A stretch of DNA of 64,000 nt, from the NCBI GenBank assembly GCA_038060895.1, contig JBBTCT010000029.1, forward strand, positions 37,160-101,159, in the 5' to 3' direction. The DNA is from Planctomycetota bacterium (GTDB lineage: Bacteria > Planctomycetota > MHYJ01 > WSZJ01). The position numbers and the translations under genes are program-made. Every line of letters begins with the position of its first letter. The first letter of the stretch is position 1. The notes beneath the pieces are model-generated. The model worked only from the letters and a program-made list of their open reading frames with translations, made no database searches and was not told the origin of the DNA. This document shows positions 25,941 through 29,800 of this stretch, piece by piece.

Positions 25941-26035
25941 GCGGGTCTTGCATCCTTGACTAGGCCTTGGCAGGCGCGCTAGACTGCCTCTCTAAGTCGT
26001 GGGGGTCAACCCGCCTAAATTTAGGAGAGGTCCGC

Positions 26036-27589
26036 ATGCGTTTCGGATCCCGATTCCTCCTTTCCATGGCCGTCCTTGCGGTGTTCGCGGGGGTTGCCAG
26101 GGCTGACGTCAAGAAGCGGTGGGAGCTGACGTTCGACCATGAACGTCCGGAGCACTACACGTTCCGCTCGCCGATGGGTAAGGAGAAGAACTACTGGTAT
26201 TTCGTCTACCGCGTGACGAACAACACGCCCCAGACGTGTCCGCTGATCGTGGACGTGAGCCTTCACGTCGACGGCCGCAACTGGCAACAGGCCGGGTTTT
26301 ATCCGGTCGAAGAGAACGCGATCATTGCCGAAGCGGACCGGATGGGCGGGTACTCGGTGGGGATCCAGAAGGAACTGATCGAGGACTTCAAGAAGCGCCG
26401 CAAGTACCTGAACAAGGGCGACCAGAGGAAGGTCGGCGTGCTTCTGCCCGGCGAGTCGGTTCACTGCCTGGCGATCTTCGAGGACAAGGCGTACCGCTAC
26501 AACGACGTCGAGGTGATGGTGAGCGGCCTCGTGGACCCGGTGACGTACAAGTGGATGGACCGCAAAGAAGGGTCGCAGACGTCGGGCAGCAACATCCATC
26601 TCCAGTACGAAAACAGCGTCTTCCGCCTCACGTACGCTCGCACGGGCGACCAGTTCTTTTCCTTCCAGCGCGGCCTGACCCTGACGAAGCACGACTGGGT
26701 TGTGGTCGGGATCAACCCGGCGGTGACGAAGTCGGACATCGCAGGCCTTGTGAGCGCGATGACCAACGACGATCCGCTGATCCGTCGCGTGGCGCAGGAC
26801 CTGCTCATCCGTTACACGGCCGCGGCGCGCAAGGACATGGATCTCGTGAAGCTCCTCAGCGAGAATCCGAAGGACAAGGTTGAAGCGCTGAAGCAGGCAA
26901 AGGATGTGCTTTCTGCGCTGGCAAAGATGGATGGCTTGAAGCAGAAACAGGTCCCGTTGATGGTCGTCCTGAAGGAACAGCTGCTCACGCGCATCCCGGA
27001 GATTCCTGCCGAGATCGCGGAGCTGAAGCGGGGCAGCGAGCTGAACAGCGACCAGATCAAGAGCCTGACGGACCAGCTCAAGATCGTGGTGACGAAGGCG
27101 AAGGAAAACAAGTGCCCGATCCCGACGTATGTCGAATCGGTGATGACCCGCGAGAACCCGACCAGCGAAGTGGTGTACGACTGGATCTGCGGGTACGAGG
27201 ACAAGAGCATCAAGAACGACAAGGGCGAGTCGACGCCGATCCTTTACCCCGGCGTCCAGCAGTGGAAGGAATTCATCACGGACATCACGGATACGAACAA
27301 CTCGCAACAGAGTCACTTCGAGTTCATCCGGTCGCTCTTCGAGGCGCTCGACGACGACACGATCACGGACCCGTGGGTGCGCGACGTGGCGATCTCGGTC
27401 CTGAAGGACGTGGCGACGGACGAGCGCATGACGGTCGATGTGACCGCCTATGACCCGAAGATCGCGTTCGCCGAACAGAAGCCCGAAGTGAAGGACGCAA
27501 TTCTCCGGTGGCGCGAGTGGTGGAGCCGGAACCGCGACGAGAGCTACTGGAACGCCAGCACGAAGTCGTTCGAGCCGAAGAAGAAGTAG
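26036..27589 (+). CDS. Secreted hypothetical protein with HEAT-like helical C-terminus
   Basis: SD AGGAG, signal peptide ARA-D, YWYFVYRVTN beta domain, DDPLIRRVA / DPWVRDVA HEAT-like motifs; strong codon bias. Confidence 0.85.
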   Translation: MRFGSRFLLSMAVLAVFAGVARADVKKRWELTFDHERPEHYTFRSPMGKEKNYWYFVYRVTNNTPQTCPLIVDVSLHVDGRNWQQAGFYPVEENAIIAEADRMGGYSVGIQKELIEDFKKRRKYLNKGDQRKVGVLLPGESVHCLAIFEDKAYRYNDVEVMVSGLVDPVTYKWMDRKEGSQTSGSNIHLQYENSVFRLTYARTGDQFFSFQRGLTLTKHDWVVVGINPAVTKSDIAGLVSAMTNDDPLIRRVAQDLLIRYTAAARKDMDLVKLLSENPKDKVEALKQAKDVLSALAKMDGLKQKQVPLMVVLKEQLLTRIPEIPAEIAELKRGSELNSDQIKSLTDQLKIVVTKAKENKCPIPTYVESVMTRENPTSEVVYDWICGYEDKSIKNDKGESTPILYPGVQQWKEFITDITDTNNSQQSHFEFIRSLFEALDDDTITDPWVRDVAISVLKDVATDERMTVDVTAYDPKIAFAEQKPEVKDAILRWREWWSRNRDESYWNASTKSFEPKKK

Positions 27590-27607: not shown

Positions 27608-27635
27608 AAACCCGCTCGCAAGAGCGGGTTTTTTT
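27608..27635 (+). terminator. Rho-independent terminator
   Basis: AAACCCGCTC-GCAA-GAGCGGGTTT plus T-tract. Confidence 0.9.
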
Positions 27636-27733
27636 GTTGCCCTGATTCCCGGTTGTCAAAGTTGACGATTTCCGATGGAATAGGGCGCTGCAAATCGGCG
27701 TTTCCAATGCACACCCATTTCCCGGAGGCAGGC

Positions 27734-28294
27734 ATGAAGCTGTTCCCGATCGCAGCGGCATTCGCGCTTTTCGCGACGGCCGCCCTGGCGGATGAAGTTT
27801 CCGCCACGAGCGTCCATCTCAAGTTCGGCGGGGTTTCCTGAAAGGTCTCCTGAGGGAAGAAACTGGCGAAAGCCCTCGAGGGCCTGGAAGGCACCTCCAA
27901 TGTGAAGTCGACGTCCGACAGCGAATTCGACGTGACGTTCAAGGCCGATGCGAAGATTTCCCCGTCCGTGATCAAGGCCGCCCTGCCCGACAAGTACTCC
28001 GTTGACCTCATGCAGGTCACCACTTCGGGCGAGCTCGCCACTTCGGAAAAGCCCGAAGAGAAGGGCCTCTGGCTCGTGCTCAAGTCCGGCCAGAAAGTCC
28101 TGCTCGCGAATCGCGCCGCAAAAGACGACAAGGACAAGCCGGAAGACGTCGTCGCGAAGCTCGGCGAAGCTCTGAAGGCCGGCACGAAGGCCGCGCGCGT
28201 CGAGGGCGTGATGGTCGAGGACAAGGACGGCAACCTGACGATCCAGCTGGCGAAGGGCGAAGCCGTGGCGGAGAAGAAGGAAGAAAAGAAGTAG
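27734..28294 (+). CDS. Secreted HMA-like protein with two in-frame UGA codons (candidate selenoprotein, UxxxU)
   Basis: SD GGAGG, signal peptide ALA-D, then HLKFGGVS-TGA(27839)-KVS-TGA(27851)-GKKLAKALEGLEGTSNV, continuing in frame to TAG 28294 (186 aa). Confidence 0.75.
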
Positions 28295-28324
28295 GGAGTC
28301 GGGAGTTCGGAGTCAAGGACCACT

Positions 28325-28353
28325 AGGGCCGCGGACAACTGTTCCGCGGCCCT
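28325..28353. terminator. Hairpin between convergent genes
   Basis: AGGGCCGCGGA...TCCGCGGCCCT followed by TTCT. Confidence 0.7.
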
Positions 28354-28381
28354 TTCTATTGGAATTGACGGAATCCGAAGG

Positions 28382-29800
28382 TCAGCTTCGCGGGGGCCAA
28401 TTGTGTCTGCGCGCGACAGTCACCTTCATGATCTCCGCCGCGGCCACTCGCAGATTTCCAAGCCCCTTCCACCCCGCCGCATACCGCTTCAGCATGCGCC
28501 ACCGGTCCGCGCGCGTGAGTTCCGGCAGCGCGGCGTTGAGCTGCGCCAGCGCCTTGACGGAGTCGGCCCGGCGCACGCGGCGGAACTCGAGGTCCTCGAG
28601 GTCGAGGAAGGCGAAGCGGGTCGGTCCGTCCGCGAGGAGGTTATTCGCCTTGAGGTCGCGATGGTGCGCGTCGGCGCGGTGCAGGCGCGCAACGAGGGCA
28701 GCGAGCCCTTCGAGGAACGGGCGGCGGTCCTTGAGGCGGGGGACCTCCTCGCGGCAGTAGCGGTCGAGAGGTTTTCCCGGGGATTCCTTCGCCACGAACG
28801 CCGACCGGCCGCGCTGCTCGACGAGCCCGATCGCCTCCGGCGCGGGAAGGCCGCGGACGCGCAGCCCCTGCGCGCCGATCCAGGCGGCGCGGGCAGGCGT
28901 GCCACGGACCCAGTTCCGAAGGGCGCGGAAGGGCCCGCCTGTTTTCCATTCCTTCACGAAGAGCCCGTCGAAGGTCGTGACGCGGCGCCCCTCGAGGGTC
29001 TTGGTGGAGAGGCCGGCGGAGCAAAGTTTGTCGTGGTGGGCGAGGGCGGCGAGCGCTTCCTCCGGCCTCGACGGCTTGCGCGTGATGACCAGGCCTTCCC
29101 TCCCGCGCGAAACCGCGAACCCGGTGGATTCCTTGAGGCACCGGCGAGTACGGCTCGCGACGTGCCGGCGGCGGAACGCATCGGAGTGGACGTTCACGCG
29201 CCGGACGCGCGCCTCCTCGTCCGCGCTCCGGCCGAGCGCCATCTTCACGAACCTCATGACGTCGGAGTGAGAAGCGATCCGGGAGAGCGAGTAGGCGAAC
29301 TGGCCGATGGCGCGTTCCTCGTCCTTCGCGGACACGCTGCCGATGCGCCCACGGTGGAGGTCGATGACGAAAAGGTTCCCCGCGGCCACGAGGATGTTGC
29401 CGGTGTGAAGGTCGAGGTGGTGGAAGCCGTTGGAGTGCATGAGGCGCAGAAGAGCGGCGACGGCGGGGATCCGGTCGCGGTGCCAGGCTTCCTTGAGGGG
29501 GGTCGCTCCGGGAATCTCCTGCATCGCGAGGACGGCGCCGCCGCCCGGCGCGGGCGACCACGCGACGGGGCGCGGCACCGGGACGCCGTGGCGCGAGAGG
29601 TGCGTCAGCGCCTTCCACTCGCTTTCCGCCTGGTCGCAGCGCTTCTTGAAGTACTTGCAGTAGAGCCCGTCGTGGCGGAAAAGCGCTCGGACGCCGTTTT
29701 CCTTCTCGGGGTGCGACGGCGGAAACCAGGCGCTTTCGCTGCTGGCGAGGGTCCGCGCGAGCGATTCGGCGCCGGGGGCGACAGTCCATGACCAGCTCAT
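28382..29800 (-). CDS. Two-domain LPS kinase (Kdo/WaaP/InaA family)
   Basis: Two kinase modules: HLDLHTGNIL..IDL and HRDLKANNLL..LDLE; LAQLNAA. Confidence 0.85.
   Translation of the reverse strand: MSWSWTVAPGAESLARTLASSESAWFPPSHPEKENGVRALFRHDGLYCKYFKKRCDQAESEWKALTHLSRHGVPVPRPVAWSPAPGGGAVLAMQEIPGATPLKEAWHRDRIPAVAALLRLMHSNGFHHLDLHTGNILVAAGNLFVIDLHRGRIGSVSAKDEERAIGQFAYSLSRIASHSDVMRFVKMALGRSADEEARVRRVNVHSDAFRRRHVASRTRRCLKESTGFAVSRGREGLVITRKPSRPEEALAALAHHDKLCSAGLSTKTLEGRRVTTFDGLFVKEWKTGGPFRALRNWVRGTPARAAWIGAQGLRVRGLPAPEAIGLVEQRGRSAFVAKESPGKPLDRYCREEVPRLKDRRPFLEGLAALVARLHRADAHHRDLKANNLLADGPTRFAFLDLEDLEFRRVRRADSVKALAQLNAALPELTRADRWRMLKRYAAGWKGLGNLRVAAAEIMKVTVARRHNWPPRS

Follow-up and report, generated by a model that had tools for sequence, protein, structure and literature searches.

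This report concerns a gene at positions 27734-28294 (+ strand) of a 64,000-nucleotide stretch of contig JBBTCT010000029.1 from a bacterium of the phylum Planctomycetota (the whole stretch is referred to below as the window), which carries two in-frame TGA codons and very probably encodes an exported protein with two selenocysteine (Sec) residues. When TGA is read through, a single frame of 186 codons extends from ATG 27734 to TAG 28292-28294, with the TGA codons at 27839-27841 (codon 36, UGA1) and 27851-27853 (codon 40, UGA2). The motif region of the resulting protein reads ...LKFGGVS-U-KVS-U-GKKLAKALEGLEG, the sequence continuing with GKK after the second U, and its translation does not contain a single cysteine. 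Under translation table 11, the frame is broken into two open reading frames (ORFs; 27653-27841 and 27902-28294). A Shine-Dalgarno sequence, GGAGG (27724-27728), is found 5 nucleotides (nt) before the ATG.

By inspection, the N-terminus, consisting of MK, a hydrophobic run and ALA before DE, has the look of a signal peptide of the Sec secretion type (residues 1-19, 27734-27790, with cleavage predicted after ALA). It is followed by a divergent HMA-like domain (approximately residues 24-94, 27803-28015), which was delimited by comparing the family profile with the PDB (profile positions 23-96), and by a C-terminal domain (approximately residues 95-178, 28016-28267), which is conserved across the family and matches no known family; a Lys/Glu-rich tail extends from there up to 28291. 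An earlier note on this DNA, made from the sequence alone, had already described the split ORFs sharing one frame, the GGAGG, the ATG, the two TGA codons and the lack of cysteine, all of which lie at the positions that it gave, and the signal peptide that it had proposed is borne out by our inspection of the N-terminus.

Conservation of the gene and of its two in-frame TGA codons

The read-through protein was used to search 61 genomes, namely the window's own and 60 relatives, and matches were obtained in 22 of them. Within the genus, an orthologue (51-83% identity) is present in all eight genomes, each with exactly two in-frame TGA codons and each retaining the Shine-Dalgarno sequence, the ATG and the signal peptide. 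Over the 30 matched places altogether, two TGA codons were found in 20, one in a single place and none in the remaining nine. We then built alignment A1 from 23 copies, complete or almost so, that occur in 20 genomes (it omits the contig-end copies L044 and L053, the duplicate locus L049 and the partial matches L046, L050, L051, L054 and L055). The only invariant columns of this alignment are G33, U/C36 and U/C40, the motif being UxxxU in 18 copies, UxxxC in one and CxxxC in four. All 23 copies start with ATG and have a hydrophobic N-terminus, and nearly all are preceded by a ribosome-binding site of the GGAG(G) type.

Among the six closest orthologues, the differences at codon positions 1, 2 and 3 amount to 123, 53 and 193 before UGA1 and to 378, 261 and 751 after UGA2. 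This peak at the third codon position indicates that the frame is translated on both sides of the TGA codons. Maximum-likelihood phylogeny groups all four Cys forms in one clade (support 100/99). Under midpoint rooting, this clade adjoins a congeneric Sec form, and a single change is thus enough to explain the Cys forms. In addition, contigs from two independent DNA studies (X4 and X11) and from an RNA library (X3, 27630-28400, and X7, 27840-28267) agree with the window without a single difference, the TGA codons included; an RNA-library origin is not in itself proof of transcription. The runs holding the gene are labelled as groundwater or aquifer metagenomes.

The earlier note had looked for support to homologues with TGA or Cys at both columns and conservation on both sides, and such homologues do exist. 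It had also considered an assembly error, with TGC or TGT in the reads; the independent assemblies and the RNA-library contig read TGA. Finally, it had judged it improbable that chance nonsense mutations would hit both ligand positions, a point which is strengthened by the occurrence of both TGA codons at the same columns in two thirds of the matched places (20 of 30).

Standard annotation calls the downstream fragment only, as would be expected if the locus were a pseudogene or if the two small ORFs (27653-27841 and 27902-28294) were unrelated and shared one frame by chance. However, in 20 places belonging to different genera the two stops coincide precisely with the ligand columns, the frame contains no further disruptions, substitutions follow a coding pattern on both sides of the TGA codons, the Cys homologues are contiguous and the HMA homology described below runs across the stops. 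The conservation of the TGA codons, alignment A1 and the codon pattern already refute this explanation for practical purposes, and we give it next to no chance of being correct. The locus is a real gene, its TGA codons are conserved, and homologues with Cys at these positions exist.

Selenocysteine machinery and genetic code

The genome assembly (5.4 Mb) encodes a tRNA-Sec with the anticodon tca (71.7 bits, above the Rfam cut-off), selA (541 bits), selB (310 bits, plus a C-terminal part) and selD (364 bits, with one in-frame TGA of its own); thus, all four of the genes (selA, selB, selC and selD) that the earlier note had proposed to look for are present. TGA is the commonest stop in this genome, where it ends 824 of 1822 long frames with a high GC content at the third codon position, and a tca anticodon is found on tRNA-SeC only. 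These results indicate a standard genetic code in which TGA is recoded locally. ARAGORN listed 85 tRNAs in total, including two tRNA-SeC (tca) and four tRNA-Trp, and a single tRNA-Sec passes the Rfam cut-off.

Among further genomes carrying the Sec form, selA was found in all five that were tested. Among the four genomes carrying the Cys form, it was found in two (G054 and G038) but not in G034 (88% complete) or G052 (65% complete). The idea that Cys forms are confined to genomes without Sec machinery was rejected, since G054 and G038 have selA.

Could near-cognate or suppressor decoding instead place one of the standard amino acids, such as Trp, Cys or Gly, at the two UGA codons? A tryptophan at the first position of two database relatives (P0073 and P0075) would agree with such decoding, as would the location of UGA1 outside the usual spacing of the selenocysteine insertion sequence (SECIS). 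Against this, long ORFs end in TGA more often than in any other stop, no tca tRNA other than that for Sec was found in the genome, the two columns switch only to Cys among the homologues, the full Sec machinery is present and the hairpin described in the following section is specific to the TGA forms. Standard decoding is thus very improbable, and we consider it highly likely that UGA 27839 and UGA 27851 are decoded as Sec. As to P0073 and P0075, whose database records read W-x3-C at the motif, they are probably U-x3-C genes in which a gene caller rendered TGA as Trp.

A candidate recoding signal downstream of the UGA codons

The bacterial SECIS (bSECIS) model, as given in the legend to Fig. 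2 of PMC13188914, requires a loop of 3-9 nt with G in its first two positions and a stem of 4-16 base pairs (bp), located 16-37 nt from the UGA, with a minimum free energy of at most -7.5 kcal/mol and the loop pattern N1-G-G-N-N2. A hairpin at 27878-27897 (+ strand; GAGGGCC-UGGAA-GGC(A)CCUC), which emerged from folding, covariation and the contrast between Sec and Cys forms, has a stem of 7 bp with a bulge, a UGGAA loop that fits N1-G-G-N-N2 and a folding energy of -11.3 kcal/mol; with a spacing of 31 nt, it agrees with the constraints of this model for UGA2.

For the Sec-versus-Cys comparison, we folded the 28 nt starting 20 nt after the second codon. The Sec forms (19 TGA-bearing genes) have a mean energy of -12.05 kcal/mol, a z-score of -2.0 and a within-gene rank of 0.069, compared to -5.5 kcal/mol, +0.74 and 0.56 for the four Cys forms. 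The hairpin is present in 17 of the 19 Sec forms (it is weak in L039 and L041b) and is weak or absent in all four Cys forms. Pairs were counted on a codon-anchored alignment (A2), and the resulting covariation and pairing figures are inflated by the kinship of the sequences: in the continuous register, 75.2% of cells are paired, compared to at most 58.6% when the register is slid, double changes occur in five of the seven pairs and the covariation score of 0.243 (0.128±0.027 when shuffled) is reached by none of 500 shuffles, while in the bulged register 79.7% are paired and the score is reached by 12 of 500 shuffles. On fixed columns, RNAalifold recovers only a core of 3-4 bp, because the outer stem shifts register.

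Several observations weigh against this assignment. The loop lies 43 nt from UGA1, outside the range of 16-37 nt. Taken alone, the hairpin of the window gene is not significant, as 13 of 200 shuffles of the 28 nt fold equally well (z -1.88), and the 80 nt from 27836 to 27915 fold no better than their shuffles (z 0.06). Moreover, the core GCC-UGGAA-GGC partly follows from GC-rich codons for G-L-E-G, a similar UGGAA-loop element also occurs in selD at A-L-E-G, and no conserved hairpin other than that at 27878-27897 was found in this genus.

Other elements were considered and rejected. The earlier note had pointed to two short hairpins (27865-27874 and 27872-27883); their sequences are indeed there, whereas the SECIS role does not fall to them, as their stems have 3-4 bp and the relatives do not preserve them, and the conserved, covarying element is the one at 27878-27897. 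The covariation that the note had suggested looking for downstream of the UGA codons is therefore found in this hairpin, together with specificity for the Sec forms. A hairpin directly 3' of UGA2 was likewise dismissed: in common with the two short ones, it reaches appreciable strength in distant members alone, does not differ between Sec and Cys forms and mostly lacks the required loop G. In this genus, it shrinks to the 3-bp GGC-GAAA-GCC that the note had listed. Rfam contains no fitting family, the only matches being sroH (16 bits, cut-off 80) and a miRNA.

Related elements are found elsewhere in the genome. The two other double-TGA HMA genes carry a CC-UGGAN-GG hairpin, the loop of which lies 31 nt after UGA2 in one gene and 22 nt after UGA2, that is 31 nt after UGA1, in the other. 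In selD (L018, G000:C2), the TGA is followed 17 nt downstream by a hairpin GGGUCC-GGC-GGACCU and 37 nt downstream by a second one, AGCCC-UGGAA-GGGCU, with the same loop as that of the window gene.

Overall, the hairpin at 27878-27897 is most likely the best SECIS candidate at this locus and probably serves both UGA codons, which are 12 nt apart. Two UGA codons at this distance and one conserved hairpin would provide a compact system for studying the reach and reuse of bacterial SECIS elements; if the proposal is correct, one SelB-SECIS element is used twice within four elongation cycles.

Homology of the protein to HMA domains

Comparison of the A1 profile with the PDB returned Bacillus subtilis CopA (1p6t, E 2e-9), CopZ (1k0v, 2e-7) and MerP (1afi, 3e-5). 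In the HMMER alignments, the two Sec columns coincide with the two ligand Cys of the solved HMA domains, UGA1 (codon 36) with the first and UGA2 (codon 40) with the second Cys of the CxxC motif, and one residue is inserted between them; the UxxxU/CxxxC spacing thus appears to result from a one-residue insertion relative to canonical CxxC. The Pfam HMA family (PF00403) matches 16 of the 23 A1 members at E<=1, and three Cys relatives (P0003, P0034 and P0043) pass its gathering score. Judged by these profile comparisons, the domain at approximately residues 24-94 is homologous to HMA. This placement of both Sec columns on metal-ligand Cys agrees with the proposal of the earlier note that both HMA ligands are Sec, which requires one correction: the motif of the family is not GMxCxxC but G-x-x-[U/C]-x3-[U/C], and the x3 spacing is a conserved family trait.

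Some results run counter to this assignment. The window protein itself matches no Pfam family, HMA included, and gives only faint matches in NCBIfam, namely to the UxxU_metal_bind model NF041115 (the best), CopZ and MerP. The ligand spacing is unlike that of every characterised HMA, and some family members have neither Cys nor Sec at the motif, which suggests that the scaffold can work without a dithiol or diselenol site. Such members include the paralogues L054, L051 and L055 (G050 and G040), which keep the C-terminal domain and whose N-terminal part lacks a Cys/Sec motif; P0031 and P0072 resemble them. In a P-type ATPase of 1405 residues (P0011), five HMA repeats carry C-x3-C (GM[R/S]C-x3-C) and one carries CxxC, which indicates that C-x3-C HMA domains exist outside the family of the window gene.

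For the C-terminal domain, no model was found in Pfam or NCBIfam, and its profile gave a best E of 0.024 in the PDB, to an unrelated enzyme. The ESM Atlas returned weak sub-threshold leads (DUF6370, 0.85, and DUF5818, 0.84). Kinship with the C-terminal extension of the UxxU lipoprotein encoded in the same genome was considered and rejected, as hhalign gave a probability of 3.8% and the two are unrelated.

Breadth of the family and its annotation

A profile search over 1.84 billion cluster representatives returned 2348 proteins at E<=1e-3, of which 186 also reach E<=1e-10. The best 150 representatives comprise 70 long multi-HMA proteins, 40 short fragments without the motif columns (their N-terminal part is missing), 22 proteins with CxxC, 12 with CxxxC, two with W-x3-C and four with incomplete or no ligands. 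More than half of the short fragments (22 of 40) begin 2-8 positions past the second Sec column, and these are likely to be truncated Sec forms. Similarly, all 11 close relatives in a collection of 5.8 billion proteins are 103-142 residues long, covering 57-76% of the query, and the named ones among them are all called hypothetical protein. The earlier note had anticipated that such a protein would be invisible to standard annotation, and these fragments illustrate the point; the close public relatives of the family are truncated, which amounts to a systematic annotation error. Of 201 genomes sampled evenly across the phylum, four gave a match at E<=1e-8; they belong to three families, f1, f5 and, with one marginal match, f16. 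A single-protein query of related loci returned two loci of metagenome-assembled genomes of Planctomycetota.

Flanking features and genomic neighbourhood

Upstream of the gene, a motif GGAAT-N17-CGTT (27677-27702, + strand) is shared by the upstream regions of all six closest orthologues. It resembles promoters of the extracytoplasmic function (ECF) sigma type and may be such a promoter; a scan of the genome revealed no regulon sharing it and no other gene with the extended motif. The upstream gene ends in a terminator-like site (27608-27636), and an intrinsic-terminator-like hairpin (28325-28353, + strand) lies 3' of the gene. With terminator-like hairpins on both sides, the gene looks monocistronic.

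The upstream neighbour (25967-27589, + strand) encodes an exported protein of 540 amino acids, which matches neither Pfam nor NCBIfam and stands next to the gene in seven of the nine genus-level loci compared (59-80% identity). Downstream, on the opposite strand, follow genes of the lipopolysaccharide (LPS) core, namely a Kdo/WaaP-type kinase, GT4 and GT9. The neighbourhood in family f5 is different, comprising genes for NADH dehydrogenase subunits (by inspection of the translations), ETF-QO, a protein of about 190 residues and a gene read by inspection as radical SAM, and the selenoprotein gene is sometimes present in two copies; we read this arrangement as synteny and not as an operon. The gene for the protein of about 190 residues lies beside the selenoprotein gene in four f5 loci in varying orientation (L052:911-1420, - strand; L041:2369-3013, - strand; L035:2-466, - strand; L038:2-745, + strand), and the protein has no Pfam or NCBIfam family and no usable match in the ESM Atlas.

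Two further loci of the genome also contain multiple in-frame TGA codons. In the first (L023, G000:C1:24629-27838, minus strand), three consecutive exported genes on the same strand carry seven in-frame TGA codons, with starts at L023:2573 and 1776 and the third gene at 281-1039. They encode two PDZ proteins having a C-terminal domain with two adjacent TGA codons (GAETUU) and one lipoprotein-like HMA (UxxU) protein that also includes a fused module of the thioredoxin-like type (GPGUVTC). At a distance of 22-25 nt, the UU pair is followed by what looks like a canonical SECIS (7-bp stem, loop GUU), and in the gene that was scanned NCBIfam recognises the PDZ part only. The second locus (L025:1414-1878, + strand; G000:C8) holds a double-TGA lipoprotein gene with a canonical HMA motif, GMEUSPU, and a C-terminal extension; it gives CopZ-type matches of up to 45 bits and matches NF041115 with 33.7 bits, below the cut-off.

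Proposed function

Taken together, these results suggest a model that we regard as moderately probable. The gene would give rise to one exported protein of 186 residues, in which a signal peptide is followed by a divergent HMA domain of the ferredoxin-like metallochaperone type and a C-terminal domain of about 90 residues, and in which Sec occupies the two metal-ligand positions of the HMA loop, forming a U-x3-U motif. The SelA/SelB/tRNA-Sec system would insert Sec at UGA 27839 and UGA 27851, recoding being directed by the hairpin at 27878-27897 with its apical UGGAA, probably for both codons. The mature protein would most likely reside in the periplasm, where its two selenolates may chelate a soft metal ion, with Cu(I) or ions of the Hg(II)/Cd(II) type as candidates, and it could thereby act as a scavenger or chaperone.

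Metal binding, taken by itself, is a somewhat probable function. Soft-metal chelation is favoured because of the homology to metallochaperones, the occurrence of Sec at the ligand positions and the similar reading of catalogued relatives, the HMA-type selenoproteins being described as metal-binding in the consulted part of the catalogue (PMC13188914). The surroundings of the window gene provide a point against it, as no genes for metal resistance or metal enzymes are adjacent. In two of the four Cys-form loci examined, the gene directly follows, on the same strand, a gene for a thioredoxin (L036) or genes for AhpC/TSA and a TlpA-like protein (L040). These neighbours would suit a periplasmic protein that needs its ligand thiols to be reduced, yet they are just as compatible with a redox role.

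The protein, still a genuine double selenoprotein, could alternatively employ its U-x3-U motif as a diselenide/diselenol couple and act as a periplasmic oxidoreductase or as a module for handling peroxides or disulfides. In addition to the neighbours in L036 and L040, this proposal agrees with the fact that most prokaryotic selenoproteins are redox enzymes, as stated in the abstract of PMC9312934. Furthermore, the other Sec-rich periplasmic genes of this genome include thioredoxin-like UxxC modules, and the non-canonical spacing speaks against a classical HMA metal geometry. On the other hand, the domain is homologous to those of metallochaperones with both Sec on metal ligands, the window locus is devoid of redox neighbours and we know of no HMA domain that acts as an oxidoreductase. 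Periplasmic thioredoxin-like proteins, moreover, also keep the metal-site thiols of copper chaperones reduced, such that their presence next to the Cys forms is compatible with metal binding. A redox function is accordingly unlikely in our view, and chelation of a soft metal ion remains the preferred reading.

Comparison with known systems

The closest catalogued counterpart is NF041115 (UxxU_metal_bind), an HMA-type domain in which both ligand Cys are replaced by Sec and which is the best NCBIfam match of the window protein. The score of this match, however, is 16.4 bits (12-20 bits among the family members) against a cut-off of 95, and the separate UxxU genes of the same genome outscore it with 34.8 and 21 bits. 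The two also differ in architecture, NF041115 being a 74-position model with UxxU and the window protein an exported protein of 186 residues with UxxxU and an additional C-terminal domain. As HMA-type UxxU double selenoproteins are already known from NF041115 and catalogued in the consulted part of PMC13188914, the principle of a double-Sec HMA domain is not new, and the statement of the earlier note that such a protein would be very unusual was too strong.

The CopZ, MerP and CopA N-terminal domains (PF00403) are homologous to the domain described here (E 2e-9 to 3e-5) and their ligand columns coincide with its Sec columns, whereas the family of the window gene has an extra residue between the ligands, Sec in place of Cys and a fused C-terminal domain, and the window locus lacks a mer or cop operon context. 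MerP is, like the window protein, exported with a signal peptide; the match to its model (TIGR02052) reaches 13.6 bits against a cut-off of 92.55, and the gene is flanked by that of the 540-residue protein and by LPS-core genes in place of a mer operon. A further parallel is offered by the Sco/SenC copper chaperones, which are extracytoplasmic, have a CxxxC motif and depend on thioredoxin-like reductases. The C-x3-C spacing and the location are thus shared, by analogy only: Sco proteins adopt a thioredoxin fold with a third His ligand, and none of the searches made revealed a sequence relation between them and the family of the window gene.

Two Sec codons a few codons apart, presumably sharing their recoding signals, are also found in TsoB (UxxxxU, NF045694), MbdU (NF045648) and FmdB-family UxxU proteins, which are tabulated as double selenoproteins in the 2026 catalogue (PMC13188914). 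Their domains are unrelated to that of the window protein, and none of them is among its NCBIfam matches at E<=10.

With regard to novelty, no model in Pfam or NCBIfam (release 20) covers the two-domain UxxxU family, and the term UxxxU does not occur in the consulted parts of PMC13188914 and PMC9312934. The main text of PMC4807772 mentions no HMA or heavy-metal selenoprotein, its supplementary tables being a place where the family could be listed under another name, and no paper joining CxxxC with an HMA domain was among the matches listed in our literature search. We put forward, tentatively, that this is a previously uncatalogued family, common in groundwater Planctomycetota, which combines an exported HMA scaffold, a U-x3-U diselenol site and a new C-terminal domain, and in which a single SECIS 31 and 43 nt downstream would recode both UGA codons, the distance of 43 nt lying beyond the accepted range.

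The significance of the family is tempered by the fact that UxxU HMA selenoproteins, like numerous further new Sec families, are already known and that its function is deduced here from homology and context. It nevertheless extends the prokaryotic selenoproteome by a well-supported predicted double-Sec family from a phylum for which little has been catalogued ("Planctomyc-" is absent from the consulted text of the 2026 review, PMC13188914). The conserved spacing, as U-x3-U or C-x3-C on an HMA scaffold, represents a natural experiment on metal-site geometry and on selenium versus sulfur ligands.

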